A DNA stretch of 64,000 nucleotides from Eubacteriales bacterium (GTDB taxonomy: Bacteria > Bacillota > Clostridia > Oscillospirales > CAG-382). A model generated the notes under the pieces. That model had not been told where the DNA came from and made no database searches. It saw only the letters and a program-made list of their open reading frames with translations. The stretch is from assembly GCA_045536535.1 (NCBI GenBank), contig JAZSNS010000019.1, positions 18,826-82,825 of the forward strand, written 5' to 3'. Positions 9,514 to 57,756 of the stretch are shown here, piece by piece. Position numbers and translations under genes: made by a program. The stretch's first letter is position 1; the number at the start of each line of letters is the position of its first letter.

Positions 9514-10656
9514 TTAGTCGTCAAAAGCGCGTGTGAGACACACAACATTTTCGACATGGTCCGTAAACGGGAACATATCGACCGGCTGAATCTTCTTCAC
9601 CTTATATCCGCCCTTGCGGAGCGCAAACAGATCGCGCGAAAGAGTTTCGGGGTTACAGGAAACGTAAACGATTTTTTCGGGCGAAAGGGAAAGCAGGCTC
9701 TTGATAAACTTAATGCTGCAACCGGCTCGCGGTGGATCGGTTATCACGGCATTGATCTTCTCGCCCTTTTCGGCAAGAGATTGCATGAACTCGCCTGCGT
9801 CGGAGTTAATGAATCTTGCGTTTTTAATGCCGTTGAGCCTTGCGTTTTCGATCGCGTCGGCAACCGCGTCGGGATTGACCTCAACGCCGATGATCTCTTT
9901 TGCACCGCGCGCCGCCGTGAGCCCGATAGTGCCTGTGCCGCAATAGGCGTCGATAACCTTTTCCTTGCCCGAAAGGGCTAAAAATTCGCGCACTTTCGCA
10001 TAAAGTATCTCGGTCTGGATCGGGTTGACTTGATAAAAAGAGTTCGGACTGATACGGAATTTCAATCCGCTAAGCACATCGGTTATATAACCGTTTCCGT
10101 ACAGTATCTCGCTTTTTTCACCGAGGAAAAGCGGTGTGCTCGTTGGGTTGATGTTCCAAACGAGGGTCGTGATCTCGGGGTGCTTTTTCAGAAGCGCATC
10201 GGCAAAATCCTTTTTGTGCGGAAACTCGCCCTTTGCCGTGACGATGACCGCCATAATTTCGCCGCTTTTGAAGCCGCGCCTTATGAGCACATGGCGCATA
10301 AATCCTTTTCCGTTTGTCAGATCATAGGATTTGATCTTAAAAGCGTTGCAAAGATCTTTAACCGTTTTGACGATCGCGCCTGCGTTTTTGTCTTCGAGCA
10401 GACAGGTTTCAACAGGAACAACGCGCCTCGTCGCCGATTGATAAATCCCACAGACGGTTTTTCCGTTGCGGAAGGAAAACAAAGATTGAACCTTGTTTCG
10501 GTAATAAAACGGCTCGTTCATGCCGATTATTTCGTCCACATGGCAATATTTACCGACAAGTCGGATTATTTTTGCCTGCTTCATGCTCAATTGTTCTTCA
10601 TATGTAAGATTTTGCAGACTGCATCCGCCGCATTTTTTGGCATAAGGACAAAGCAT
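9514..10656 (-). CDS. RumA/TrmA-family RNA (uracil-C5)-methyltransferase lacking the N-terminal TRAM domain
   Basis: The 4Fe-4S Cys cluster starts at residue 3 (CPYAKKCGGC). FYQVN, DAYCGTGTIG and DPPRAG motifs are present. Catalytic Cys context VYVSCNP. Confidence 0.85.
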   Translation of the reverse strand: MLCPYAKKCGGCSLQNLTYEEQLSMKQAKIIRLVGKYCHVDEIIGMNEPFYYRNKVQSLFSFRNGKTVCGIYQSATRRVVPVETCLLEDKNAGAIVKTVKDLCNAFKIKSYDLTNGKGFMRHVLIRRGFKSGEIMAVIVTAKGEFPHKKDFADALLKKHPEITTLVWNINPTSTPLFLGEKSEILYGNGYITDVLSGLKFRISPNSFYQVNPIQTEILYAKVREFLALSGKEKVIDAYCGTGTIGLTAARGAKEIIGVEVNPDAVADAIENARLNGIKNARFINSDAGEFMQSLAEKGEKINAVITDPPRAGCSIKFIKSLLSLSPEKIVYVSCNPETLSRDLFALRKGGYKVKKIQPVDMFPFTDHVENVVCLTRAFDD

Positions 10657-12298: not shown

Positions 12299-13660
12299 CT
12301 AATCATCGGCTTTTTCCCGACTTAAACAGACCACCGTTTCAACATGCCCGGTTCTTGGGAATAAGTCAAACGGAGTTGCTTCTTTCGTTTTGTATCCGTT
12401 TTCGGCAAAAATCGCGCAATCGCGCGCAAGTGTCGCGGGATCGCAGGAGATATAGACGATCTTTTCGGGGCTTGCGTTAACGACGGTTTCGATAACAGCT
12501 CTGTCAAGCCCCTTTCGGGGAGGATCGACGATGATAATTCCGGGGTTTCCGAATTTCTCGCGGCATTTTTGCACGCCGATATTCGCGTCGCCGCAGACGA
12601 AAAGAGTGTTTTCATCGTTTCTGCCGTTCCTGACCGAGTTTTGCTTTGCATTTTCGATCGCGGCTTCGATAATTTCAACGCCGCAGAGCTTGTCGTTTTT
12701 GTTCGCAACGCAAAGACCGATCGTTCCCGCTCCGCAATAAAGGTCAAGGATGATGCTCCCGTTTTCTTTGGGCGAGGCGAGTTTTACCGCATGGTTATAA
12801 AGTTTTTCCGCCATTTCGGCGTTGACCTGATAAAATGCACGCGGCGAAACGTCAAACGTTTTTCCGCAAAGTTCGTCGGTGAGTGCGTCTGCGCCGAGCA
12901 GTTTTTTCGTAACCTCGCCGAAAATAACGTTGTCGCGTTTTTTGTTTATGTTAAGATGAACGCCGATGACGGATTTGAACCTTTCGCTCATCAATTCGGC
13001 AAGAATTTGCAGTTTTTTATCCTCTTTTGCCGCAACGATGCAGACAAGTATCTCACCTTTTCGGTTTTTCCTCATGACGATATGGCGCAAAACGCCCCTG
13101 CCTGTCAATTCGTCATATGCGTTGATGTAAAGACTGTCTGCGGTTTTGGCACAGAAGTCGGCGAGTTCGGTAAAAATTTTGTCCTGCAAAAGACATTCGC
13201 CGTGCGAAACGATTCTGTGCGAACGGCGCGCATAATATCCGAAAGCGCATTTTCCGTTTTCGTCGGGCGCAAAAGGATATTGCACTTTGTTGCGGTAACG
13301 TTCGGGAGAACCGAAAACCGTTTCGTTGACGGTGATATCAATGTTTCCGATCCGCGAAAATGATTGTTTGACGATATTTCTTTTGAGCCTTAATTCGGCT
13401 TCATAGGAAATGTGACGGAAAACACAGCCGCCGCATTTTTGCGAAACGGCGCAATCGGCCGCGATTCGGTCGGGAGAGGGGGTAATGACCTCAACGACTT
13501 TCGCGAACGAGCGGTTTTTGAGTTCTTTAAGCACAAGCGCGCTTATTTTATCCCCGATCGCTGTATCGGCAACGAAAAAAACCTTGCCGTCAAGCCGTCC
13601 CACGCCGAACCCTTCGGGCGTCACGTCGGTTATTTCAAGTGTGATGATGTCATTCTTCAT
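12299..13660 (-). CDS. rlmD: 23S rRNA (uracil-C5)-methyltransferase RlmD/RumA with TRAM domain
   Basis: TRAM N-terminus (ITLEITDVTPEGFGVGRLDGKVFFV), Cys cluster CAVSQKCGGC, FYQVN, DLYCGAGTIG, DPPRKG and YISCDP. Confidence 0.88.
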   Translation of the reverse strand: MKNDIITLEITDVTPEGFGVGRLDGKVFFVADTAIGDKISALVLKELKNRSFAKVVEVITPSPDRIAADCAVSQKCGGCVFRHISYEAELRLKRNIVKQSFSRIGNIDITVNETVFGSPERYRNKVQYPFAPDENGKCAFGYYARRSHRIVSHGECLLQDKIFTELADFCAKTADSLYINAYDELTGRGVLRHIVMRKNRKGEILVCIVAAKEDKKLQILAELMSERFKSVIGVHLNINKKRDNVIFGEVTKKLLGADALTDELCGKTFDVSPRAFYQVNAEMAEKLYNHAVKLASPKENGSIILDLYCGAGTIGLCVANKNDKLCGVEIIEAAIENAKQNSVRNGRNDENTLFVCGDANIGVQKCREKFGNPGIIIVDPPRKGLDRAVIETVVNASPEKIVYISCDPATLARDCAIFAENGYKTKEATPFDLFPRTGHVETVVCLSREKADD

Positions 13661-13661
13661 G

Positions 13662-14666
13662 TTATTTTCTCAAAAAACTCTTTTGGGGTTTTTCTTCGTT
13701 CAATGCTCTCGGCTGAGTGAATTTTTCGATAAAAGGAGACAGCGCGTTAAGCACAAGCACAACGAAATAGCCCCATTCAAAACCGCCGCCGAATTTGCGG
13801 AAGACAAAAATCAAAACGCCGCAGATTGCACCGAAAACGATTTTGCCGAGTTTGGTGATCGGAACGGTTGAACTTTCGCCGAGCGCAAAGACAGAGAGAA
13901 AAACGACCGCGCCCGAGAAGAGGACGCTGAATGCATAATAATTGCTTTCGGCGTCGGCAGACGGGAATATCAGAGCCAGCAACAAAACAGGAATAAGCAT
14001 CGAAGCCGTTGCATAAGGATCAAGCGCTTTGCGAACAAAAAGCCAGACCGCGGAAAGAATTATCGCGGTGATCGCGATCTCTCCGATATGTCCCGAGGCG
14101 AATCCGTAAAGCTGTGCAAGAACACCGTCTTCATAAACGCTTCCGTCAGCCATATATTGAAGCGGGGAAATAACGCGGTAATTATCCAAAAGAATCGGGT
14201 CGATGTTTATATCGAACGCCGAAAAATAGGCGAAAGGCTTTGTGAAAGCCGTCATGATCTTCGGGAAGACGACGTTAAGCATTGCCGCCGAAAAAACGAA
14301 AGGATTGAAGAGCCGCTTCGAGCGGAAAACATAAATGTTTTTTGCCGCAACGACGAGGATCGCCGAAAGAGTCGGAAACCAAAGCGGAACCGAAACCGGC
14401 ATGGTGAAAACCGCGAGAATCGCATAAACACAAGCGGAAATTTCAACTCTCGTTCCTTTTGCGCGCTTGAAAAGATATCGTTGGATCGGGTAATCGAGCG
14501 CAAGTGCGCCGGCCGCGCCGACGATACAGAGCGTTATAACTCTTGCACCGAACATAAAAACCGCCCAAACAAGGACCGGTGCGATCGCGACAAGCCAATC
14601 AAACGCGAGATAATTATGATTCTCTTTGGTGTGCACAAAGGGTGCGCGGTTTGTTTTTGCCGTCAC
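13662..14666 (-). CDS. RnfD/NqrB-family membrane subunit homologue (divergent)
   Basis: Collinear with E. coli RsxD by manual alignment: PFVHT N-terminus, LFNPFVF, and C-terminal LFSGAVVFLSVF...GKIVFGAICGVLIFVFRKFGG. GTG start with GGAGG 7 nt upstream, overlapping the upstream stop as GTGA. Confidence 0.85.
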   Translation of the reverse strand: MTAKTNRAPFVHTKENHNYLAFDWLVAIAPVLVWAVFMFGARVITLCIVGAAGALALDYPIQRYLFKRAKGTRVEISACVYAILAVFTMPVSVPLWFPTLSAILVVAAKNIYVFRSKRLFNPFVFSAAMLNVVFPKIMTAFTKPFAYFSAFDINIDPILLDNYRVISPLQYMADGSVYEDGVLAQLYGFASGHIGEIAITAIILSAVWLFVRKALDPYATASMLIPVLLLALIFPSADAESNYYAFSVLFSGAVVFLSVFALGESSTVPITKLGKIVFGAICGVLIFVFRKFGGGFEWGYFVVLVLNALSPFIEKFTQPRALNEEKPQKSFLRK

Positions 14667-15910
14667 AATAACACCTCCGGATCCTCCGACTCGCGCGGAG
14701 TTTCGTTAAATGCGGTCAACGGGTTTATGAGCGAGAGCAAAGGGATACCGCTCGGGCAGACAAACTCACAGGCGCCGCACGAAATGCAATATTTACGCAA
14801 CTTTCCGTTTTTGTCGGAAAGAATGTCAGAGGGAATAAGTTTCACAGGGCAGGCTTCGGCGCATTTTCCGCAGGAAATACAAGCCGTTCTCTTTTTGGTT
14901 TTGGGGAGGAGCGATATAACGGCACGCGTCGAATCGGAAAGCGCGCCTTGGGCGACGTTTCCGGTGAGACGGCTGTTTGCAACAAGAGTGCGGCTCTTTT
15001 TTGCCGCTTTGCGAACCTCAACAAGGTCGTGCATCGTTATTCCTCGCGGAACTTTGAAATTTCCGGTGTGTTCAAGACCGTTTCCGCAGACCGAAACATA
15101 TCTGTCCAAAAACGGAGTTCCGTTCACCATCGCGTCGTAAAACGTGATCGCGGTCTCGGCGCCGATAATGCAAACGCCGTAATCAAGCGGAGTTTCGTTT
15201 CGCAAAAGCGGTTTCACATAGAGAGCATACATAAGTGTGAAATCGTTGAAAGGATATTTTTCATCGAGTTCCGCCATCGCGAAGAGCTTTTCGTCATTTG
15301 CAAATTCAAGCAACGAGCCAAAAGCCGCTTTGCGGTAATGTTCCGCCGCGAAAACGCATTTGAGCGCACCCGTCGAGCGGAGCAAAACTTTCGCGCCGCC
15401 GATGAGCGATTTTGCCTTTTCGATGCAAAGACGGTAATTTATCGCGCTTTCCGCATCGGGTTCTGTGCAATCAATGATCAGTCTTCGGCATTTGTTTCCG
15501 GCTTCTTCGAGGATCTCCCAAAGCGGCCTTCCGCTTCTTGTGTCAATAATGCCGAATTTTTGTGCGCATTCAATTATATCATCGGTCGTCATTTGTGTGA
15601 GCGATCGGCTTTCGGGCGCGAAAAGTCGCTTTTCCCCCTTTTCGCCGCTGTTGATGATGACGAAATATTTCCTTCCGCCGATCTCGGCAACGCCGTTGAA
15701 TTTTCCGGCGACCGGGGCAAAAACGGGAGTGCCCGCGTTTTCGCCGATAAGGCTTCCGCGATCAACGGTCTCGCCTTCTTTGGCGACAATGCCGAAATCA
15801 TCAAACGCTTCAATGCACACAGCAGAGCAGTCGGTTATATTTTCGATCGGCTTTTTACCGATACGCGTTCTTTCGTCGGGGCGCGCTCCGCCCGGAAAAC
15901 GTAAAATCAT
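14663..15910 (-). CDS. RnfC-family subunit homologue with two [4Fe-4S] motifs and degenerate nucleotide/FMN motifs
   Basis: Start MILRFPGGARP at 15910 (AAAGGAAG upstream; listed ORF extends to 16042). Barrel-sandwich segment GETVDRGSLIG...PVFAPVAG. Cluster motifs CISCGKCAEACP and CISCGACEFVCP. Confidence 0.8.
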   Translation of the reverse strand: MILRFPGGARPDERTRIGKKPIENITDCSAVCIEAFDDFGIVAKEGETVDRGSLIGENAGTPVFAPVAGKFNGVAEIGGRKYFVIINSGEKGEKRLFAPESRSLTQMTTDDIIECAQKFGIIDTRSGRPLWEILEEAGNKCRRLIIDCTEPDAESAINYRLCIEKAKSLIGGAKVLLRSTGALKCVFAAEHYRKAAFGSLLEFANDEKLFAMAELDEKYPFNDFTLMYALYVKPLLRNETPLDYGVCIIGAETAITFYDAMVNGTPFLDRYVSVCGNGLEHTGNFKVPRGITMHDLVEVRKAAKKSRTLVANSRLTGNVAQGALSDSTRAVISLLPKTKKRTACISCGKCAEACPVKLIPSDILSDKNGKLRKYCISCGACEFVCPSGIPLLSLINPLTAFNETPRESEDPEVLL

Positions 15911-16095
15911 TTTTCTCTTCCTTTTTGTTGCCGTTTTGGCAGAACGGCTTCGTTGATCTTCCCACACGGCACGACGGCAGGGATCGCATGCCGTTTCGCC
16001 GCCGTATGCGAAGAAACATTTCAAATAAATATATATATACAAAATAAGTATACCACATATGGCTTATTTTTCAAGTGAAACTTTCAATCCTCTTA

Positions 16096-16124
16096 TTGAA
16101 ATATTTGTAAGAATGATGTATAAT
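16096..16124 (+). promoter_or_regulatory. sigma-A-like promoter (TTGAAA-17-TATAAT with a TG extension)
   Basis: TTGAAA at 16096-16101 and TGTATAAT ending at 16124, upstream of 16210. Confidence 0.5.
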
Positions 16125-16209: not shown

Positions 16210-16752
16210 ATGAAACTCGCAAACAGTATCGACGTCAAAGTTTTCATACTTTACCTTTTGAATAACGTTGGAATGCCGCTTGAATTCGATACCGTCAACG
16301 ATATCGTTCTTCAAGACGAGTTCGTCAATTATTTTGATTTCGCGATCTGCTTTTCGGAGCTTCTCGACAACGGTCAGATCACCGAGATCAAAGACGGCGA
16401 AAAGATTCTTTACATCATTTCCGAAAGCGGAAAAGAAACGCTTGAAAGTTACGAGAGCGAGCTTTTGCCGATAACGAAAGAACGCGCATTGAGAAGTGCG
16501 TTGAGGCTTATTTCGTTCAAACTCAACGGCAACCGCATTCAGAGCTCGATCACCGAATCCGCAAACGGCGGTTATAACCTGAACTGTTCGATCGTTGATA
16601 AAGAAAAAACGCTTTTTTCGCTCAACGTTCATCTTAACGACAAGAATTATGCCGAAAAGATGCGTGCGAATTTCGAGGACCGCGCCGAGATAATCTATCG
16701 CGGCTCGCTTTCGCTCCTTTCGGGCGATGTGAATTTTATTTTTGATGATTGA
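16210..16752 (+). CDS. DUF4364-type protein (putative winged-helix regulator)
   Basis: N-terminal KVFILYLLNNVGMPLEFDTVNDIV...ELLDNGQI pattern. The family name is from recall. Confidence 0.6.
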   Translation: MKLANSIDVKVFILYLLNNVGMPLEFDTVNDIVLQDEFVNYFDFAICFSELLDNGQITEIKDGEKILYIISESGKETLESYESELLPITKERALRSALRLISFKLNGNRIQSSITESANGGYNLNCSIVDKEKTLFSLNVHLNDKNYAEKMRANFEDRAEIIYRGSLSLLSGDVNFIFDD

Positions 16753-16804: not shown

Positions 16805-17449
16805 ATGGACTTGAAAACAAAAGCAGAAAAGATAATAAACGCGCTTGAAACGCTTTACCCCGAGCCCGCTTGCGGGCTTTTCTGGGAAGGCGATCCTTAC
16901 AGATTGCTCATCATGGCGATCCTTTCGGCGCAATGTACCGACGCGCGCGTGAATATCGTCGCGAAAACGCTTTTTCTTCGATTTCCGACGGTTTACGATA
17001 TGGCGAAAGCCGATCTGAGCGACATCGAAAACGAGATCCGCTCGGTCGGTCTTTACCGATCAAAGGCGGTTGCGCTCAAAGAATGCTCGGCGCGTGTCTG
17101 TGAGGTCTACGGAGGAGAGGTTCCGCGCGAAATGGAGGATCTTCTCACGCTTCGCGGCGTCGGAAGAAAGGTTGCAAATCTGTTAAGAGGCGACATTTTC
17201 GGGCTTGGCGGAATCGTTGCCGATACCCATTGTATCCGAATTTCGGGGAGATTGGGGCTTGCCGACGGAAAGGATCCGATCAAAACCGAGCGTTCGCTTT
17301 CAAAACTTGTTCCTCTTGAAAAACAGAGCGATTTTTGCCACAGAATGGTGCTTTTCGGCCGCGAAGTATGCGTTGCCCGATCGCCGAAATGCGGCGAATG
17401 TCCGCTCAAAGAATTTTGTATGTATGATAAAAAGGTGAAGAATGATTGA
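16805..17449 (+). CDS. nth: Endonuclease III (DNA-(apurinic or apyrimidinic site) lyase)
   Basis: HhH-GPD (LTLRGVGRKVANLL) and the C-terminal FeS loop CVARSPKCGECPLKEFC. Confidence 0.9.
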   Translation: MDLKTKAEKIINALETLYPEPACGLFWEGDPYRLLIMAILSAQCTDARVNIVAKTLFLRFPTVYDMAKADLSDIENEIRSVGLYRSKAVALKECSARVCEVYGGEVPREMEDLLTLRGVGRKVANLLRGDIFGLGGIVADTHCIRISGRLGLADGKDPIKTERSLSKLVPLEKQSDFCHRMVLFGREVCVARSPKCGECPLKEFCMYDKKVKND

Positions 17450-18164
17450 TCCCAAGGCGTTGCAAAAACTCATGTCATTCACTCGGCGCGCTGTTGAGAA
17501 ATATGACATGATTGAAGACGGTGACAGAATCGCTGTCGGCGTTTCGGGCGGCAAGGACAGCCTTGCTCTGCTTTGTGCGCTTAACGGACTCAAAAGATTT
17601 TATCCCAAAAAATTCGAAATCGTTCCGATAAACCTGAAAATGGGATTCCCGAATGAGGACGATTCGGTCTCGCGCAGTCTTTGCGAAGAATTGGGGCTTG
17701 AACTCAAAACCGTCGGAACGGGCGAGATATATCAGGTTGTTTTTGAGGTCAGAAAAGAAAAACACCCATGCTCGCTTTGCTCAAACATGCGTCGCGGCGG
17801 ACTTCATAACGCGGCGAAGGAACTCGGTTGCAACAAACTTGCGCTCGGGCATCATTTCGATGATGCTGTTGAAACGATAATCATGAATTTATTTATCGAG
17901 GGGCGGTTTGATTGTTTCCGTCCCGTCACCTATCTTGATCGAAGCGACATGACTGTCATTCGACCGTTGCTTTATGCTCCCGAAAAGGAAATTTCTCATT
18001 TTGTCCGCGCGAGCGGAATAACTCCCGTTCCGAAAAATTGTCCTGCCGACGGCAATACCCGCCGCGAGCAGGCAAAGAACGCGCTTGCCGAACTTGAACG
18101 CAACGATCGCGGCGTGAAACAGCGTGTTTTTAATGCGTTTTTCGAGAAATATGATAAAGAATAA
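17442..18164 (+). CDS. PP-loop ATPase, tRNA 2-thiocytidine synthetase TtcA-like
   Basis: PP-loop VGVSGGKDS, followed by CSLCSNMRRG and a CPADG Cys pair. Overlaps nth by 8 nt. Confidence 0.78.
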   Translation: MIDPKALQKLMSFTRRAVEKYDMIEDGDRIAVGVSGGKDSLALLCALNGLKRFYPKKFEIVPINLKMGFPNEDDSVSRSLCEELGLELKTVGTGEIYQVVFEVRKEKHPCSLCSNMRRGGLHNAAKELGCNKLALGHHFDDAVETIIMNLFIEGRFDCFRPVTYLDRSDMTVIRPLLYAPEKEISHFVRASGITPVPKNCPADGNTRREQAKNALAELERNDRGVKQRVFNAFFEKYDKE

Positions 18165-18190: not shown

Positions 18191-19228
18191 ATGAAAAAAG
18201 CGTTATCTTTCATTCTTGCCGCAGTAATGCTCTGCGCGATGCTTGTCCTGCCTTCTTCGGCGGCGGACAACGTTAATTATCAAGAGGAATTTTGGTATGT
18301 CAAAACTGCTCCGAAGATCGACGGTGTCGTTAAAACGACGGAATACGGCCCCATTTTTCCCAATGATACCGAAAAGCCGATGGGAAGTATCCCCGCCCAC
18401 CTCGCTGACAAGACTCATCTCGTTATCGACAAAGTGAACAGCCCGATAACCGGAGAAGATTCGATGCTCATAACAGATATATCGGGAATCTACAATTATA
18501 ATCTGGATTGGGCATATTGTATGCTTTTGGAACCCATTTATTACGGATCGAGTGTTTATAGACTTATTGATATCTCGTATCCGACGGGCTACGTTCCCGC
18601 TTTCGATACGGAATTCGTTCAAGGTATGCTCATCGTTGCGGTCCATTCCGACGGACAGCAAGCAGGGGCGGATCGCGCAAATCTTGCAAAATCCATCCCG
18701 GTAGGCACCACGTTCGGGCTTTGGGAGATCGACCTCAACAACGACGATACAAATTATAAAAACTCCTCGATCTATGTTATCGACAGACCCGATATTGAAG
18801 GCGGTGTTGTTGATCCCGACGTATCAATGCCCGACACCGAAGACGTTTCGGACGACGTTTCGGACGACGTTTCGGACGATGTTTCGGACGACGGCTCGGT
18901 CGATATGAGCATCGTAATCCGTCCCGACACTTCGTTCGATAGCGACGCTGTAAAGGGCGAGACCGTTTTCGGTGAAGGCATCACTGAAAACGCAGAATCC
19001 ATTTCAGGCAAAACAGGCATTCCTGTCTTGGCCGTTATTGTGATCATCGTAATTTTGCTTCTCCTCTTCCTCGCAGTTCTGCCTTTGGTCATTGTTATCG
19101 TTATAATTATCGTCATCGTCAAAATCGTCAAGAAAAACAAAGCGAAGAAAGCGGCGGCGTTGGCGGCGGCAGAGGCTGAGGCTTATGAACCCGTTCAAGA
19201 AAACCCGACCGAAAGCGAAGGCGAATAA
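18191..19228 (+). CDS. Secreted, C-terminally membrane-anchored protein with a (DVSD)n acidic repeat
   Basis: Signal peptide MKKALSFILAAVMLCAMLVLPSSAA. The ectodomain is collinear with the 1067-1795 module. DVSD occurs 4 times, followed by a long TM and a KKNKAKK tail. Confidence 0.7.
   Translation: MKKALSFILAAVMLCAMLVLPSSAADNVNYQEEFWYVKTAPKIDGVVKTTEYGPIFPNDTEKPMGSIPAHLADKTHLVIDKVNSPITGEDSMLITDISGIYNYNLDWAYCMLLEPIYYGSSVYRLIDISYPTGYVPAFDTEFVQGMLIVAVHSDGQQAGADRANLAKSIPVGTTFGLWEIDLNNDDTNYKNSSIYVIDRPDIEGGVVDPDVSMPDTEDVSDDVSDDVSDDVSDDGSVDMSIVIRPDTSFDSDAVKGETVFGEGITENAESISGKTGIPVLAVIVIIVILLLLFLAVLPLVIVIVIIIVIVKIVKKNKAKKAAALAAAEAEAYEPVQENPTESEGE
18842..18901 (+). repeat. In-frame 12-nt tandem repeat (GACGTTTCGGAC, 4 copies plus one degenerate copy)
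   Basis: gacgtttcggac gacgtttcggac gacgtttcggac gatgtttcggac gacggctcggtc, encoding DVSD repeats. Confidence 0.9.
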
Positions 19229-19287
19229 TAAGTCATTCTTTAACAATCCCCCTCAATAACTCCTCGAACGAAAAAGGAGAAAAATCC

Positions 19288-20859
19288 ATGAAAAAGTTTT
19301 TATCTGTTCTGATCGTATCCTTGATGATATTTGCGCTTGTGCCTTTCGCGGCGTCCGCCGAGAGCGTTGACGTTATTGTTGCGGTCGCCGACGGCGGAAG
19401 CGTTGAGGCAAACGGCGTTGAGATTTACGGCGGCGAATCGGTTGTTTCGGTCACGAACGGAACGCTTAACTGTGTTTCGACTTCTTATGATACATCCAAG
19501 GTCGTCAGAGCGTTTGTTAACGGCGAGGAAATCCCGGCACCGAACGGAGAGTTCTCTGTCAACAACGTCACATCAGCAACGAGAGTTTATGTTGCGTTTG
19601 CCTATCTTTATGTCGACGATATGGGCATTGAAATCGATGATGTCGATTGGACCGCCGAGAATATCGTTATTCCCGTGAGTTCTTCCGAGCCTGTGGTCGA
19701 CGAGGTTTTTCATAAAATCGCTGCGATTCCCGAAGGGAAGTTTGTCGAATTCAAAAGCGCGCTCGGCAGCATTTTCATACCTACCGGCAGGCTCATGTAC
19801 TTCGTCGAAACTTCTTATATGAACGTCGGCGATATTGTCGGCGGAAACCGTTATGAGAACATCAGATCGGCGATGCAGCTTCGCGGTGAAGAAAACACGA
19901 ATTTTGCGGCTTTCGGTTTTCTTGCGTCCTGCGTTTTCCCGAGCGGAACCGAGGTTTCTTTCAACCTTGGTGAAAAATACGCAAATTCGACAACTCAGGT
20001 CTTTGATTACGACGACGATTTGAAATATGTTTATTCAAAAGCCGAGGTCGGCGTTTCGGAAACCGGCGTAACGGAAAGAATCGTTTATGATAACGAATCG
20101 GTTCTTGTGTGTGCCCTTAACGAGGCGATCAGATACAGTATCTATATTTCGGCCAACGGAGAGGGCGGAAGCGTTTCTCCCGAAGGCGTTCAGAGCGTCA
20201 TTTATAAAGACTCTCTTGAAGTTAACGCCAAGGCGGACGAAGGGTTTGTTATAAAGAGAATCCTTGTTGACGGCGCGGAAATCGAGATCGAAAAAAATCT
20301 TACCGATTACACCCATTCGTTTTCGGAAGTCGAAGCTAATCATACCTTTTCGGTCGAATTTAAAGAGAAAGAAGCAGAACCTGTGACGATCATCGTCAAC
20401 GTTGACGATGATATCGACGTTGATCCGACGGATGAGTCGAAAACCGAATTAAGACCGATCGCGATATTTTTGATCATTGTCGGTGTTCTTCTCTTGCTCT
20501 TTGGGTTGCTGATTATAATAATCGTTATCATCATCGTTGCGATGCGCAAAAAGAAGAAAAAACGCGAACGTCTTGCGGCAGAAAACGTTGCGGCGGCAAA
20601 TGTTGCGCCGGCGGCAGGCGCCGCGGAAGAAAACGCGGAAAATTCAAATCCGGAGATCGTTGAAGGTTCTGTTGCCGATGATGCCGTTTGCGCGGCCGCG
20701 GCAAAAGACGCGTCCGAATGCGCTGATGAATCCGACGGCGCAAACGACGAAGCGCCTGCCGTTGCGGCAGACGTGTCCGAATTTAAATTCTGCTCGAACT
20801 GCGGAACAAAACTCGAACCCAACAGCGAGATTTGCCATAACTGCGGAAACAAGCAATAA
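19288..20859 (+). CDS. Bitopic surface protein: signal peptide, repeated beta-modules, TM, and a cytoplasmic tail ending in a zinc ribbon
   Basis: Signal peptide MKKFLSVLIVSLMIFALVPFAASA. Two ..GGSV....F modules sit near the ends of the ectodomain. TM IAIFLIIVGVLLLLFGLLIIIIVIIIV is followed by KKKKKR. C-terminus FCSNCGTKLEPNSEICHNCGNKQ. Confidence 0.72.
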   Translation: MKKFLSVLIVSLMIFALVPFAASAESVDVIVAVADGGSVEANGVEIYGGESVVSVTNGTLNCVSTSYDTSKVVRAFVNGEEIPAPNGEFSVNNVTSATRVYVAFAYLYVDDMGIEIDDVDWTAENIVIPVSSSEPVVDEVFHKIAAIPEGKFVEFKSALGSIFIPTGRLMYFVETSYMNVGDIVGGNRYENIRSAMQLRGEENTNFAAFGFLASCVFPSGTEVSFNLGEKYANSTTQVFDYDDDLKYVYSKAEVGVSETGVTERIVYDNESVLVCALNEAIRYSIYISANGEGGSVSPEGVQSVIYKDSLEVNAKADEGFVIKRILVDGAEIEIEKNLTDYTHSFSEVEANHTFSVEFKEKEAEPVTIIVNVDDDIDVDPTDESKTELRPIAIFLIIVGVLLLLFGLLIIIIVIIIVAMRKKKKKRERLAAENVAAANVAPAAGAAEENAENSNPEIVEGSVADDAVCAAAAKDASECADESDGANDEAPAVAADVSEFKFCSNCGTKLEPNSEICHNCGNKQ

Positions 20860-22241: not shown

Positions 22242-22733
22242 GTGAAGAAATTTATCATTCCGCTTGTCATCGTTGCGCTTTGTCTTGCGTTGATTCCCGT
22301 TGCGGCGATGAACACGTTTGCGGAGGGTGGTTCTGACGAGGTTTCTATCCCCGACAACACGCTTATTGATTACGGTTATCTTAAAACCTTTAAAGAACAG
22401 CTCAGGCAGGAACTCATCGAAGAACTTACTGCTTCGGGCGGAATTACCGTCAACACCACTTATGAAGACGTTTCCTTGAAGGAAGGTCAATTCATAATAC
22501 TTTCGCCCGACAGCGAAGTCATCTATCGCGGCGGCGGCGCGGTCGTTATTTCCTCGTCGAACGCCGAGAACGAAGGCATTACCGATATGTCAAAAGGCAC
22601 CGAACTTTTTTCGGGTGAGTCTTTGGAATACGGACATATCTATTACGCATCGGCGACCGAATCAAAAAAAGCAGTGCTCGTCACAGGCAGCAAGGCATAT
22701 TTTACGGTAAGGGGAAGTTATGAGATCGTTTAA
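22242..22733 (+). CDS. Secreted hypothetical protein
   Basis: GTG start preceded by AAGGAGAG. Signal peptide KKFIIPLVIVALCLALIPVAAMNTFA. Overlaps the next gene by 14 nt. Confidence 0.6.
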   Translation: MKKFIIPLVIVALCLALIPVAAMNTFAEGGSDEVSIPDNTLIDYGYLKTFKEQLRQELIEELTASGGITVNTTYEDVSLKEGQFIILSPDSEVIYRGGGAVVISSSNAENEGITDMSKGTELFSGESLEYGHIYYASATESKKAVLVTGSKAYFTVRGSYEIV

Positions 22734-24348
22734 GCCCTGCCGTTTCATCGGTTTCGCGCTGGCATTCGTATTCTGCTTCGGCGCGGCGGTAACGCCTTTC
22801 GGCACAACCACTTTTGCAAAATCGGACAGTTACAAAGAACCTAACGTTCAGGTCGGAATGTATGTTTCGACTCCTTTGCTTGACACAAAACGTTTTTCCT
22901 CGAAGAACGTTTCGTCGAGCGGTTTTGAGATCGGATATGTTTCCGGTGAAAGTTTCAAACTTCTTCATTCGCTCGATAACAAATCAATAATTTTGATTCC
23001 GCAGGTCAATGCGAATTTCAACGGCGGCAACGTTAAGGCTGACTCCAACGGCGATATCGGCGCATACAGCGCGGTCATGGGCAGTTATCAAAGCGCGTCG
23101 AGTGCATTTTCCGCCGCAAAAAGTTCGGGCGGATTCGTCGCTTTCGTAAAGGGCGGTTATGAGGTCCGCAAATTCGCTTCGGTCACTGCCGAAAAGGCGA
23201 AAAAGGCTTCAAACGGCAGAGAGATCGCTTCGCCCGTTTCGGGTGGCTTGACGGTTCTCGATGCCGAAAACGGCAAGATACTCTTCACCTTTGAGGATTC
23301 TTCGCACAAACTTGCGATCCGCGCAAAGAACGGCGGAACGGTCAATCTCCCCATGAAACACCGTTCGGGAAGCGAAAACAGTTACGATTATCGCGGTATT
23401 TTTGTTTATTCGGTTTCGGGCGGATTGCTCCAAATGGTCAATATTCTCGGTTTGGAGGAATATACCCGTTGCGTAATGGCGAACGAAATCGGCACGAACT
23501 TCTCGGTCGAGACCCGCAAGGCTTTTGCGGTTCTCGCGCGCACGGTCCCGCTTAACAGCAAACATTCAAAACTCGGGTTTGACGTTTGTTGCAACTCTGC
23601 TTGTTGCCAGGTCTATTACGGAACCTACCGCATGAGCGAGGCAAACAACAAGATCGTCGATGCAACTCGCGGACTTGTCTGTACCTATCAGGGTGCACCT
23701 ATTACCGTTCTTTATCATAACTCAAACGGCGGCGCAAGTTGTTCGTCGGTTGCGGCTTGGGGCGGTGTTGAAGTTCCTTATCTTACCACCGTTTTCCAAG
23801 AGGAATTTGAAGACGGCGACAAATGGGAACGCGTTTACACAAAGCAAGAATTTTTTGAATATATCCGCTCGCGCAACGCTTTTTCTTCGTTGAGCGACGA
23901 TGAAATTTCGATGAAGATTCTCGGCAAAGATCCTTACGGCTCGGATTATATCACCGTTCTCTCGGTCAGTGACGGAAAAGGCAACACAGTCACCGTTGAA
24001 ACCAGCGAAGATATCCGCGCGGCGTGCGGATTCACCAGCGCGAATTTCGAGATTGAATACAGCGTTGAAATTCCTGTTCTGTCCTCGGACGGAAAGGTCG
24101 AGACCCGACCGATCAGCGGCGTTCTCACCGCCGAAGGTTACAAACCGTTTGAAGGCTTCGGCGACGGCGTGAAAACCGCCCAAGGCGTTGAATACAAAGC
24201 AGAAAAGATCGCGATCAAAGGCTCGGGCGTCGGTCACGGCGTTGGATTCTCGGCAACGGGAAGCGAAAAACTTTCGCAAGACGGATATAGTTATAAATAT
24301 ATCCTCACTTTCTTCTTCAACGGCACAAAACTTGAATATGCAAAATAA
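22720..24348 (+). CDS. SpoIID/LytB domain-containing secreted protein
   Basis: LEEYTRCVMANEIG...ETRKAFAVLARTV...CCNSACCQVYYG...YHNSNGG motifs typical of the SpoIID/LytB amidase-enhancer domain. An N-terminal signal is present. Confidence 0.8.
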   Translation: MRSFKPCRFIGFALAFVFCFGAAVTPFGTTTFAKSDSYKEPNVQVGMYVSTPLLDTKRFSSKNVSSSGFEIGYVSGESFKLLHSLDNKSIILIPQVNANFNGGNVKADSNGDIGAYSAVMGSYQSASSAFSAAKSSGGFVAFVKGGYEVRKFASVTAEKAKKASNGREIASPVSGGLTVLDAENGKILFTFEDSSHKLAIRAKNGGTVNLPMKHRSGSENSYDYRGIFVYSVSGGLLQMVNILGLEEYTRCVMANEIGTNFSVETRKAFAVLARTVPLNSKHSKLGFDVCCNSACCQVYYGTYRMSEANNKIVDATRGLVCTYQGAPITVLYHNSNGGASCSSVAAWGGVEVPYLTTVFQEEFEDGDKWERVYTKQEFFEYIRSRNAFSSLSDDEISMKILGKDPYGSDYITVLSVSDGKGNTVTVETSEDIRAACGFTSANFEIEYSVEIPVLSSDGKVETRPISGVLTAEGYKPFEGFGDGVKTAQGVEYKAEKIAIKGSGVGHGVGFSATGSEKLSQDGYSYKYILTFFFNGTKLEYAK

Positions 24349-32365: not shown

Positions 32366-32597
32366 AACAGTCCTCCGTAATAATGATTGATTTAAGTATA
32401 ACCGAATTTGCCGAAAATTACAATAAAAAATCTCGAGAGATGACGACTTTACCGAATTCTCGGAATTATATCATTATTATACAATGGAAATATTTGAAAA
32501 TCAACGAAAATTGAACAAAAAAACATTGCCAAGAGGGTATTTTGGTGTTATAATTATAAAATCCATGAAAATCGCTTTGAAATCAGGTGTATTGATT

Positions 32598-33440
32598 ATG
32601 TTTAAAATTGTTTCAAAGGCGGCGCTTAATCCGACCGTTTCGAAAATGGTCGTTTATGCTCCTCAAATTGCAAAAAAAGCCGAGCCCGGTCAGTTCATAA
32701 TTCTTCGTGTCGATGACGACGGCGAACGCATTCCTCTTACTATTGCGGATTACGACGCAAAAGAGGGAACCGTTACCATTATTTATCAGATCGTCGGCGC
32801 AACGACCAAAAGGCTCGATGCCAAAAAAGAAGGCGAATATATTTCCGACTTTGTCGGCCCGTTGGGCAGACCTACCGAAACCGAAGGGATCAAAAAGGTT
32901 GCCGTTATCGGCGGCGGCGTCGGGTGCGCGATCGCGCTTCCCGTTGCTAAAAAGCTCCACGAACTCGGCGCGGAGGTTCATTCGGTCGTCGGATTTCGTA
33001 ACAAGGACCTTGTTATTCTCAGCGACGAATTCACTGCTTGCAGCGATAAATACATCATCATGACCGACGACGGCTCGATCGGCGAAAAGGGTCTTGTTAC
33101 CGATGCGCTGCGCAAGTTGATCGAAAGCGGCGAACAATATGACGAAGTTATCGCGATCGGTCCGGTGATCATGATGAAGTTCGTCTGCAAACTCACCAAG
33201 GAATTCGGAATCAAAACCACCGTCAGCATGAACCCGATCATGATCGACGGAACAGGTATGTGCGGCGGTTGCCGTCTTACCGTCGGCGGCAAGGTCAAGT
33301 TCGCATGTGTTGACGGCCCCGATTTTGACGGTCACGAGGTCGATTTTGACGAGGCTATGGATCGCGGCTCGATGTATCGCGATTTTGAACGCCATAAATA
33401 TGAAGAAACCTGCAACCTTCTTAACAAGTCGGTTGAATGA
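32598..33440 (+). CDS. nfnA: Ferredoxin-NADP+ reductase-like FAD/[2Fe-2S] subunit (NfnA; PyrK-like)
   Basis: Start MFKIVSK at 32598; the listed ORF start at 32484 is an over-extension. GQFIILRV..GERIPLTI. C-terminal CGGCR..C cluster. Paired with nfnB. Confidence 0.8.
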   Translation: MFKIVSKAALNPTVSKMVVYAPQIAKKAEPGQFIILRVDDDGERIPLTIADYDAKEGTVTIIYQIVGATTKRLDAKKEGEYISDFVGPLGRPTETEGIKKVAVIGGGVGCAIALPVAKKLHELGAEVHSVVGFRNKDLVILSDEFTACSDKYIIMTDDGSIGEKGLVTDALRKLIESGEQYDEVIAIGPVIMMKFVCKLTKEFGIKTTVSMNPIMIDGTGMCGGCRLTVGGKVKFACVDGPDFDGHEVDFDEAMDRGSMYRDFERHKYEETCNLLNKSVE

Positions 33441-33460
33441 ACGATGGGGAGGAATCACTA

Positions 33461-34846
33461 ATGCCTAATATGTCTTTAAAAAAGAACGAAATGCCCCATC
33501 AGGCTCCCGAGGTACGCGCTCGTAATTTCGAGGAAGTTGCGCTCGGTTATACCCCCGAACAGGCGATCGACGAGGCACAGCGTTGCCTCAACTGCAAAAA
33601 CCGTCCCTGCGTTTCGGGTTGCCCCGTTAATATCGCTATCCCCGAATTTATCGCGCTTGTTGCAGAGGGCGATTTTGAAGCTGCATATAACGTTATCAGC
33701 CGTCAGAGTTCGCTTCCCGCCGTTTGCGGCAGAGTTTGCCCGCAGGAATCGCAATGCGAAAGCAAATGCGTGCGCGGGATCAAGGGCGAACCGGTTGCTA
33801 TCGGCAGGCTTGAACGGTTTGTTGCCGATTGGCATAACGCTCATTGCGACGTTCTTCCCGAACGTCCCGAAAGCAACGGACACCGCGTTGCGGTCATCGG
33901 ATCCGGTCCTTCCGGTTTGGCTTGCGCGGGCGACCTTGCAAAGAAAGGTTATGAGGTCACCGTTTTTGAAGCACTTCACGTTGCCGGCGGCGTTCTTGTT
34001 TACGGTATTCCCGAATTCCGCCTTCCCAAGGCGATCGTTGCCAAAGAGATCGAGACCCTTAAAGCCCTCGGCGTTGAGATCAGAACCAATTCGGTTGTCG
34101 GCAAACTTATCTCGGTAGACGAACTTTTTGAAGAAGGCTTTGAAGCTGTGTTCATCGGCTCTGGCGCAGGCCTGCCCAGATTCATGGGCATTGAGGGCGA
34201 AAACCTCAAAGGCGTCTATTCCGCGAACGAATTTCTGACAAGAATAAATCTCATGAAAGCCTACCGCGAGGAGAGCAACACTCCTATTTTCCGTGCAAAG
34301 AAGGTTGCGGTCTGCGGCGGCGGTAACGTTGCTATGGATGCGGCAAGAAGCGCGCTCCGTCTGGGCGCTGACGAGGTTTATATCGTCTATCGCCGCGGCG
34401 AAAACGAACTTCCCGCACGTGCCGAAGAAGTTGAACACGCAAAGGAAGAGGGCATCATCTTCAAACTTCTCACCAACCCCACCCGTATCCTCAAAGGCGA
34501 AAACGGCTTTGTCGGCGGCATGGAATGCGTTGAGATGACGCTTGGTGAACCCGATGCGTCGGGCAGAAGAAAGCCTGTCGTTAAGGAAGGCAGTGAATTT
34601 GTGCTTGACGTTGATTGCGTGATCATGGCGATCGGTACATCACCCAACCCCCTCATCAAATCAACCACCGAAAACCTTGCGACCGAAAAATGGGGCGGCA
34701 TTATTGCCGACGAAAACGGCTTGACCTCGCGTGAAAACGTCTATGCGGGCGGCGACGCCGTCACGGGCGCGGCAACCGTAATTCTCGCGATGGGCGCGGG
34801 CAAGACCGCGGCCGATGCGATCGACAAGAAACTTTCGGGCAAATAA
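33461..34846 (+). CDS. nfnB: Glutamate synthase small-subunit-like NADPH oxidoreductase (NfnB)
   Basis: GGGGAGG lies 8 nt before the ATG at 33461. FeS motifs CLNCKNRPC and CPV. Two dinucleotide folds, VAVIGSGPSG and VAVCGGGNVAMD. Confidence 0.85.
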   Translation: MPNMSLKKNEMPHQAPEVRARNFEEVALGYTPEQAIDEAQRCLNCKNRPCVSGCPVNIAIPEFIALVAEGDFEAAYNVISRQSSLPAVCGRVCPQESQCESKCVRGIKGEPVAIGRLERFVADWHNAHCDVLPERPESNGHRVAVIGSGPSGLACAGDLAKKGYEVTVFEALHVAGGVLVYGIPEFRLPKAIVAKEIETLKALGVEIRTNSVVGKLISVDELFEEGFEAVFIGSGAGLPRFMGIEGENLKGVYSANEFLTRINLMKAYREESNTPIFRAKKVAVCGGGNVAMDAARSALRLGADEVYIVYRRGENELPARAEEVEHAKEEGIIFKLLTNPTRILKGENGFVGGMECVEMTLGEPDASGRRKPVVKEGSEFVLDVDCVIMAIGTSPNPLIKSTTENLATEKWGGIIADENGLTSRENVYAGGDAVTGAATVILAMGAGKTAADAIDKKLSGK

Positions 34847-45546: not shown

Positions 45547-45730
45547 AAAAAATCCCCGAAAGCATAAAACTTTCGGGGGAATTTGCAAAATGACGCAAAA
45601 CTTAAAAACGCGAAATCTCTGCTTCTTTTATCCAGACTTTACTGTTGGTTTCGGAATCGCACCGAATCATGCAAAAACGCTCGCGGACTTTACCGCCAAT
45701 CGGGAATCACACCCTGCCCCGAAGCAATAT
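45547..45730 (-). promoter_or_regulatory. FMN riboswitch (RFN element) with a terminator expression platform
   Basis: Minus strand reads GCTTCGGGGCAGGGTGTGATTCCCGATTGGCGGTAAAGTCCGCGAGC...GATTCGGTGCGATTCCGAAACCAACAGTAAAGTCTGGATAAAAGAAGC, then TCCCCGAAAG-loop-CTTTCGGGGA plus TTTTTT. This matches the conserved RFN core. Confidence 0.88.
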
Positions 45731-51147: not shown

Positions 51148-51176
51148 AAAAAAGAACCGCTTTGGTTCTTTTTTAT
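51148..51176. terminator. Bidirectional Rho-independent terminator
   Basis: AAAGAACC-GCTTT-GGTTCTTT flanked by an A-run and a T-run. Overlaps the stop of the minus-strand giant gene. Confidence 0.72.
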
Positions 51177-57474: not shown

Positions 57475-57648
57475 TTACGCCTGAGGAGCGTCTACGGGGC
57501 AAACGCCTGCACAGGCGCCGCAATCAATGCAGAGTTCTGCATCGATGATGTACTTGCCGTCGTCGGCGACGGTGATAGCGCTAACGGGGCATTCAGCCTC
57601 GCAGGTGCCGCAACCGATGCAAGTTTCGTTGTTGATAGAATATGCCAT
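57475..57648 (-). CDS. 2x[4Fe-4S] ferredoxin
   Basis: GGAGG lies 8 nt before the ATG at 57648 (MAYSINNETC). CIGCGTCEAECP and CIDCGACAGVCP. Confidence 0.88.
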   Translation of the reverse strand: MAYSINNETCIGCGTCEAECPVSAITVADDGKYIIDAELCIDCGACAGVCPVDAPQA

Positions 57649-57756
57649 GGGAAACACCTCCGATTAATATTACATATGATAATATCATAACTTTTTATGA
57701 AATTCAATAGGTTATTCGACACTTTTAGATAAAAGTTATTTCCAAATTTGAAATTT

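Follow-up and report, generated by a model that had tools for sequence, protein, structure and literature searches.

A 64-kb stretch of clostridial DNA (contig JAZSNS010000019.1 of an Eubacteriales bacterium; this whole stretch is termed here the window) encodes, side by side on its minus strand, relatives of two of the six subunits of the Rnf complex (RnfABCDGE, or RsxABCDGE in Escherichia coli): an RnfC-like cytoplasmic iron-sulfur (FeS) subunit and an RnfD-like polytopic membrane subunit, whose genes and products are termed here C' and D'. That the C'D' pair constitutes a discrete, conserved family in uncultured gut Clostridia, the members of which are the sole survivors of an Rnf-type operon, is well supported. 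The fuller reading adopted here--that the pair is what survives of Rnf and that it acts, in general terms, as a non-pumping FeS-flavin wire within the membrane--is judged to have about an even chance of being right.

C' (14663-15910; minus strand, as are all positions within C', D' and rlmD given below) encodes 415 residues starting from an ATG at 15910, and D' (13662-14666) encodes 334 residues starting from a GTG that overlaps the C' stop; both assignments come from profile, phmmer and fold comparisons. The letters GTGA belong both to the end of C' and to the beginning of D', with a GGAGG Shine-Dalgarno sequence 8 nucleotides upstream, and the TAA of D' is followed, after 1 base, by the ATG of rlmD (12299-13660), which encodes an RlmD-type 23S rRNA U5-methyltransferase with TRAM and methyltransferase domains (TIGR00479, 348 bits, above the cutoff). 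A preliminary description of this locus, made from the DNA letters alone, had reported both the overlap and the single-nucleotide gap, and the sequence at the two junctions agrees with it; translation of rlmD is probably coupled to that of D'. In the public annotation, D' (P0001, 324 residues) begins 10 codons downstream of the overlapping GTG. Because a conserved proline, that of the canonical S-P-H motif at the N terminus, lies ahead of the P0001 start, and because GGAGG precedes the GTG, the longer open reading frame (ORF), with its additional start region at 14625-14666, is, on these sequence features, the better gene model.

Judged by sequence comparison, the homology of C' and D' to RnfC and RnfD is far beyond chance, yet neither protein reaches the curated cutoff of its family. 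C' scores 131 bits (E 4e-38) against the rnfC model TIGR01945, under its 246-bit cutoff, and 32.5 bits against Pfam Complex1_51K, slightly over the cutoff; it matches a Fer4 dicluster as well, and its phmmer comparison with chain 7zc6_C gives an E of 2.7e-28. D' passes the gathering threshold of Pfam NQR2_RnfD_RnfE (PF03116, 172 bits versus 27.7 bits, E 2.5e-50), which is its sole Pfam content, but scores 137 bits against the rnfD model TIGR01946, under the 207-bit cutoff; its phmmer comparison with 8ahx_D gives an E of 1.4e-28. The AlphaFold model of C' (predicted local distance difference test, pLDDT, 89.9) has, in Foldseek, a template modeling (TM) score of 0.86 to RnfC 9eri_C and of 0.70-0.72 to full-length NqrA, and that of D' (pLDDT 80.4) has a TM score of 0.82 to RnfD 8ahx_D, the runners-up after RnfC and RnfD being NqrA and NqrB. 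Both products, in other words, keep the scaffolds of their families, as had been proposed, in models that are confident. Many canonical positions have nevertheless changed: among columns with a conservation of 90% or more across canonical operons of Clostridia, C' keeps 39 of the 111 in RnfC and D' keeps 33 of the 108 in RnfD.

An exhaustive search also turned up a 775-residue protein (P0253) that is a natural fusion of a full RnfC (RnfC_N, Complex1_51K, Fer4) to RnfD within one polypeptide; such fusions lend independent support to the notion of C and D acting as a unit. Other RnfD-domain proteins, of 450-780 residues, have N-terminal extensions lacking a Pfam match.

The cofactor motifs were checked using phmmer alignments to solved Rnf complexes (7ZC6, 9ERI and 8AHX) and to E. 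coli RsxC, together with family alignments, with conservation in C' being counted over 133 unique sequences. In alignments to 7zc6_C and RsxC, the residues DTRSGRPLW (123-131; 15518-15544) stand in place of the glycine-rich loop GxGGAxFPT, which binds flavin mononucleotide (FMN) and NADH, and these replacement residues are themselves strongly conserved (D123 in 122, R125 in 126, S126 in 112, G127 in 129, P129 in 126, L130 in 132 and W131 in 116 relatives). Likewise, DCTEPD (residues 147-152; 15455-15472) stands in place of N-A-A-E-C-E-P-Y and is conserved (D147 in 131, C148 in 114, T149 in 130, E150 in 121 and D152 in 110), so that the NADH/FMN loops are replaced in 133 of 133 relatives. By contrast, each of the two CxxCxxCxxxCP motifs (C344-P355, 14846-14881; C375-P386, 14753-14788) retains four of four cysteines in every one of the 133 sequences. 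The manual alignment in the preliminary description, which had read RsxC GLGGAGFPT as DTRSGRPLW and AAECEPY as DCTEPDA and had found both cluster motifs intact, was therefore not shifted; phmmer and the family alignments reproduce it. A third cluster site, formed by the additional cysteines C28, C32, C148 and C162, was considered and set aside: these are just 81-87% conserved, and C148 and C162 tend to vanish together, unlike obligatory ligands.

In D', where conservation was counted over 147 unique sequences, residues 163-181, YRVISPLQYMADGSVYEDG (14124-14180), constitute a family signature where canonical RnfD has the threonine that binds FMN covalently: S167 corresponds in the alignment to T156 of Acetobacterium woodii RnfD, and the stretch DNYRVISPL aligns with RnfD TTATPL/DGISQAT. 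The signature (Y-R-V-[IL]-S-P-L-Q-Y-M-A-D-G-S-V-Y-E-D-G) is near-invariant, Y163, V165, P168, G175 and G181 included. Compared with the ApbE flavinylation motif D-x-x-[ST]-G-A-[ST], the acceptor Ser/Thr is kept in 147 of 147 relatives (Ser in 135, Thr in 12), and the remainder reads x-x-Y-R-V-[IL]. Inasmuch as an acceptor hydroxyl is present in every relative and, in published work, changing one residue of the ApbE motif only lowers flavinylation (PMC12052999), the flavinylation site of D' appears to be altered rather than simply lost or clearly abolished, although D' differs from those single-substitution cases in that several motif positions have changed at once. Thus the earlier reading of RsxD DGISQAT as DNYRVIS stands as regards the alignment and the retained hydroxyl, but its notion of a motif lost in the middle gives way to one of alteration. 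The two positions that correspond to N123 and D249, the riboflavin ligands in A. woodii RnfD (ligand roles: PMC11889175), both appear from the alignment to be kept: N121 (14304-14306) is Asn in 137 of 147 relatives (93%), and E264 (13875-13877) is Glu in 124 and Asp in 23. Elsewhere in the window, an FMN riboswitch (RF00050, 104 bits; 45616-45730, minus strand) lies directly upstream of a gene for the S component of an energy-coupling factor (ECF) transporter (PF12822; 44878-45588, minus strand), presumably an importer of riboflavin of the RibU type, and the organism seems to take up flavin from its surroundings.

The other Rnf subunits were sought both within the window and around related loci. 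Comparison of six-frame ORFs from the window with E. coli RsxA, B, C, D, G and E (phmmer --max) returned C' and D' only, with no RsxA, RsxE or RsxG and no true RsxB; the remaining matches are of the Fer4 type, to C' itself and to a 62-residue ferredoxin (57478-57663). This agrees with the earlier count of two subunits of six and of no rnfG, rnfE, rnfA or rnfB in any frame of the 64 kb, and no RnfA, RnfB, RnfE or RnfG occurs within 8 kb in 45 related loci. With the pump core, RnfG and RnfB absent, C'D' cannot be an ion-pumping ferredoxin:NAD+ oxidoreductase.

The pair recurs widely. Protein searches return about 120 clusters of D' and about 100 clusters of C' from gut and rumen metagenomes, with matches to C' falling sharply from at least 42% identity within the family to about 25% to canonical RnfC, and a scan of species-representative genomes finds C'D' in 45 species-level metagenome-assembled genomes (MAGs), which are labelled Eubacteriales, Clostridia or Oscillospiraceae and which come from ruminant, chicken and human gut. 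D' is full-length in all 45 loci and C' in 42 (the shortfall reflecting contig ends), and across 45 of 45 species and over 100 metagenomic clusters the ORFs are intact. Relative to the window proteins, C' has a median identity of 53% and D' one of 57%, versus 70% for RlmD and, among the neighbors described below, 67% for DUF4364, 76% for Nth and 84% for a TtcA-like protein; C' and D' appear, that is, to evolve faster than their neighbors yet to be clearly constrained. In essentially all 45 loci the gene order is ttcA-like, nth and DUF4364 in one direction and C', D' and rlmD in the other. Full-length genes, conserved replacement motifs, conserved synteny and confident RnfC and RnfD folds all speak for the view, put forward at the outset, that this is not a decaying operon. 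The accompanying proposal of a repurposed membrane-plus-FeS module holds insofar as the pair is conserved and non-decaying; the 'repurposed' part is something that we infer rather than a demonstrated new function.

How this state arose is suggested by more distant RnfD-like representatives, taken from an exhaustive profile search. Loci L051/L052 and L054 carry C'-D' in the same slot; in L053, C'-D' is followed by an unrelated 189-residue membrane protein, and rlmD lies 1.5 kb off. (Remnants of the missing G-, E- and A-type genes were looked for in C'D'-only loci, this 189-residue protein included, and no phmmer or Pfam match was obtained.) A sister clade of about 35 protein clusters, sampled at three loci (L055, L138/L139 and L140/L141), has nth and DUF4364 divergent from RnfC, RnfD, a G-like protein (G'), RnfE and RnfA, followed by rlmD, with RnfB absent. 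In this five-gene clade the glycine loop of RnfC is already lost; the ApbE motif of RnfD is lost with its Ser/Thr retained; the SGAT motif of RnfG is lost in two of three examples; and, within the [2Fe-2S] ligand set, RnfA lacks the first Cys and RnfE the second. The G-like proteins read S-G-A-T in L140 (9974-10534), G-A-E-G-C-C in L055 (5881-6462) and G-S-R-G-C-D in L138 (9968-10522), and these differences indicate that cofactor loss has been caught at different stages in sister lineages. The C and D proteins of this clade are 31-35% identical to those of the window, versus 21-26% for canonical ones. As a control, 80 canonical rnfCDGEAB loci were taken from a metagenome scan using 'intermediate' RnfD sequences, and no DUF4364, nth or rlmD occurs nearby in these; canonical Clostridial operons hold all six rnf genes together. 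Most probably, then, C'D' is what remains after an operon that kept its chromosomal place shrank in steps, first from six genes to five and finally to two. The ancestor would have been a canonical rnfCDGEAB operon; loss of B would have left C-D-G'-E-A in the sister clade, with the flavin/NADH and [2Fe-2S] motifs eroding; and further loss of G', E and A in the clade of the window would have left C'D'.

Because the five-gene clade occupies the same slot between DUF4364-nth and rlmD, adjacency to rlmD would predate the two-gene state and need not reflect a shared function. The operon with rlmD that was described initially is accordingly real as to junction and order, but may, in its adjacency and co-transcription, be inherited synteny. 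Downstream placement of rlmD holds in 45 of 45 species loci and in the five-gene clade, though in L043, L048, L050 and L053 it lies 0.8-1.6 kb from D', and in L053 other genes intervene.

The most constant neighbor of the locus is the DUF4364 gene (16210-16752, plus strand; PF14277, 133 bits), which is divergent from C' in 41 of the 45 loci (three of the other four being cut by contig ends) and is present in every intermediate and five-gene locus as well. It has no PDB sequence match, no NCBIfam match and no literature that we found, and it may be a regulator of the locus. The rest of the divergent unit consists of nth (16805-17449, plus strand), encoding the [4Fe-4S] enzyme endonuclease III (phmmer to E. 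coli Nth, E 1e-38; Pfam HhH-GPD and EndIII_4Fe-2S), and, as its third gene, a PP-loop ATPase of the TtcA-like kind (17442-18164, plus strand; PF01171), which is conserved in core family loci. In E. coli (L005, NC_000913 1705767-1712158), nth comes last in the rsxABCDGE-nth operon, and in the window it adjoins the Rnf-derived pair divergently; this occurrence of nth as an rnf neighbor in two phyla is either a coincidence or an FeS-related link.

A promoter-like site, TTGAAA-16-TG-TATACT (16047-16074, minus strand), found by a consensus scan only, lies about 130 nucleotides upstream of the C' ATG. The leader upstream of C' contains no Rfam element or riboswitch family: its sole matches are sub-threshold CRISPR direct-repeat models (16081-16104, 31.5 bits, the gathering score being 37), which an AT-rich palindrome in this divergent promoter region, where there is no array, most likely produces as noise. 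A second U5 methyltransferase, lacking TRAM and with an N-terminal CxxxxxCGGC (9514-10656, minus strand), is encoded again in most loci of the family, 1-5 kb downstream from rlmD. Further afield, an NfnAB-like pair (32484-33440 and 33437-34846, both plus strand; DHODB_Fe-S_bind, and Fer4_20 with Pyr_redox_2) and the 62-residue ferredoxin already mentioned (minus strand; two [4Fe-4S] clusters), which is a candidate partner for C', indicate a ferredoxin-based redox metabolism. The window also encodes a 1797-residue ORF (51173-56566, minus strand) with an N-terminal signal-like hydrophobic segment, and further secreted-looking proteins at 18191-20859 and 22242-24348.

Taken as a membrane wire, C'D' would work as follows. 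By homology to the way RnfC docks on RnfD, C' would bind the cytoplasmic face of D', carrying two predicted [4Fe-4S] clusters and no longer binding FMN or NADH; D' would keep the ligands of the riboflavin pocket on the cytoplasmic side, along with a hydroxyl at the outward-facing FMN site. The surviving path would then be the RnfC-cluster, riboflavin and FMN(D) half of Rnf (FMN in D' being only possible), that is, a short electron wire across the membrane between a cytoplasmic one-electron partner and a flavin site at the outer face. Lacking an FMN/NADH site, C' would need as its cytoplasmic partner a one-electron carrier or protein; a ferredoxin, or another FeS protein using the remodelled C' pocket, would be a candidate. 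No ion pump is proposed because RnfA and RnfE are absent and, in current models, Na+ passes through these rather than through RnfD (PMC11889175). Precedents exist in Nqr/Rnf-like systems that are partial and one-way, and in NqrA, an RnfC homologue devoid of cofactors (PMC8238504, PMC10979944, PMC11889175).

Several considerations weigh against this wire. The association of C' with D' is assumed from homology, and the cofactors and activity are predicted from sequence. The ApbE motif of D' is badly degraded, its conserved Asp not being kept and the Gly-Ala before the acceptor being Val-Ile/Leu, and neither the window nor the 8 kb around any locus encodes ApbE, an FMN-bind protein or another partner outside the cytosol. 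Conservation in D' peaks at residues 177-196 (VYEDG...GxIGE; 14079-14138), a stretch that is modelled with low confidence, as the sole internal segment with a pLDDT below 50, which may be because its folding needs a cofactor or partner. A neighbor-joining tree puts all C'D'-type RnfD sequences in one long-branch clade but does not place that clade as sister to the five-gene one, so that the reduction series rests on shared synteny and pairwise identity. Finally, the inspected sequence comprises 64 kb of the window genome and 8 kb on each side in relatives, and a complete second Rnf could lie outside it.

A broader interpretation is that C'D' and the B-less five-gene clusters together form an unrecognised Rnf-derived class, in which ferredoxin:NAD+ oxidoreduction has been abandoned and the [4Fe-4S]-riboflavin-(FMN) half-path reused. 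This is offered tentatively, as a minority possibility. Such a class may serve electron export or import across the membrane of strictly fermentative gut Clostridia, or may service or sense the redox state of the flanking [4Fe-4S] enzymes RlmD, Nth and the TtcA-like protein. The latter option echoes both the SoxR-reducing role of E. coli Rsx and the rsx-nth linkage.

Another explanation, which is considered unlikely, dispenses with electron transfer: C'D' would be a redox- or iron-sensing, regulatory or scaffold module, the FeS clusters of which are structural or sensory, and which, for example, tethers or modulates the co-transcribed [4Fe-4S] protein RlmD or works with Nth and TtcA. The proximity of rlmD, 1 nucleotide after D' here and downstream throughout the family, is what one would then see, as are the constancy of nth and the TtcA-like gene as neighbors and the linkage of rsx to nth in E. 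coli; moreover, the progressive loss of flavin, NADH and [2Fe-2S] motifs along the series is what would follow had electron transfer ceased to matter. Gene order within a single clade, however, cannot tell function from ancestry, and rlmD is displaced from D' in the four loci noted above. RlmD chemistry, moreover, is S-adenosylmethionine-dependent U5 methylation, which requires no reductant, and the conserved riboflavin ligands and eight of eight cluster cysteines fit electron transfer better.

It is improbable that D' is a channel or transporter with C' as its cytoplasmic FeS gate. The RnfD/NqrB fold does resemble Amt/Rh and urea channels--in Foldseek, Rh, Amt and urea transporters rank behind only RnfD and NqrB as matches to D'--and the outer-face motif of D' is strongly conserved, but those matches are weak (E 0.01-0.5, TM 0.3-0.4) and the similarity is marginal. 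Furthermore, molecular dynamics and mutagenesis of A. woodii Rnf gave no ion path through RnfD (PMC11889175), and the operon offers no transported-substrate context.

Very improbable, too, is a complete ferredoxin:NAD+ Rnf pump in which C'D' works with RnfG, RnfE, RnfA and RnfB encoded elsewhere in the genome. The limited extent of the inspected sequence leaves room for such a dispersed complex, but the NADH/FMN loops of C' are replaced throughout the family, B and [2Fe-2S] ligands were already lost in the sister clade, canonical Clostridial operons keep all six genes together, and a second complete operon would supply its own C and D. That C'D' is instead a functionless, pseudogenising remnant, as its loss of hallmark motifs and its divergence relative to its neighbors (at 70-84% identity by one summary, apart from DUF4364) might suggest, is already contradicted by intact ORFs, by near-invariant replacement motifs and FeS ligands, and by confident AlphaFold models.

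For genome annotation, the consequence is that C'D' should not count as 'Rnf present': NCBI annotates D' as 'RnfABCDGE type electron transport complex subunit D', and marker-based reconstructions from MAGs could score abundant rumen and gut Clostridia as Rnf-positive, and thus as energy-conserving, despite an absent pump core. More generally, the locus provides a natural series of six, five and two genes, which shows which half of Rnf can persist alone. If C'D' is indeed a functional FeS-flavin wire, then it would be a minimal, tractable model of the RnfC-RnfD electron path and a candidate for a new transmembrane electron-transfer route in Gram-positive gut anaerobes.

Comparison with known systems places C'D' nearest to Rnf, and yet outside each of them. 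PrdC, of proline reductase, is likewise an RnfC-type protein outside of the Rnf complex, but it is not paired with an RnfD-type protein; C' scores 52 bits against TIGR04481 PrdC, versus a 490-bit cutoff, the neighborhood of C'D' contains no prd or proline reductase genes, and C'D' is not PrdC. A second comparison is with the two-subunit 'NQR/RNF-like' systems of Meheust et al. (2021), partial derivatives that have been proposed to be one-way transmembrane electron carriers and the RnfD-like subunit of which also lacks the conserved flavinylation Thr (PMC8238504, PMC10979944). In those systems, however, the RnfD-like domain shares a polypeptide with an NAD-binding domain of the NqrF type (PF00175) and has a flavinylated RnfG/NqrC-like partner, whereas C'D' has an FeS RnfC-like protein as the partner and lacks an NAD domain; RsxG-like and FMN-bind genes are absent from the window and related loci. 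The hosts of those systems, moreover, are for the most part Actinobacteria and members of the candidate phyla radiation (CPR), whereas those of C'D' are Clostridia. Hence C'D' is not an NQR/RNF-like two-subunit system.

Na+-NQR offers a closer evolutionary parallel. NqrA is a cofactor-losing homologue of RnfC that is still bound to an RnfD-type membrane partner and that resembles C' in structure, and the reduction series described here parallels the passage from Rnf to Nqr, during which the cofactors of NqrA were lost. NqrA, however, has lost all cofactors, FeS clusters included, whereas C' keeps both clusters, and Na+-NQR has six subunits and uses quinone. The pair is far under the cutoffs of the NCBIfam NqrA and NqrB models (NF003761, 29 bits versus 450; NF003756, 55 bits versus 414), and C'D' is not Nqr.

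With Rnf itself, C'D' shares the folds of both subunits (TM 0.86 and 0.82), both [4Fe-4S] motifs of the RnfC subunit, the positions of the riboflavin ligands in RnfD, and overlapping genes with C preceding D. It differs in having two of six subunits, in the replaced NADH/FMN loops of RnfC and the degraded ApbE motif of RnfD, in both proteins scoring below NCBIfam cutoffs, and in the absence alongside it of the RnfA/E pump core with its [2Fe-2S] cluster, of RnfG and of RnfB, through which ferredoxin electrons enter. By subunit set, NADH/FMN site and curated cutoffs alike, therefore, C'D' is not a member of Rnf, although it would work most like the RnfC-RnfD sub-module of that complex. A search of the literature found no description of an RnfC/RnfD-only module: C'D' is a real, conserved and reduced derivative of Rnf, the RnfC/RnfD-only state of which is new relative to the literature found.

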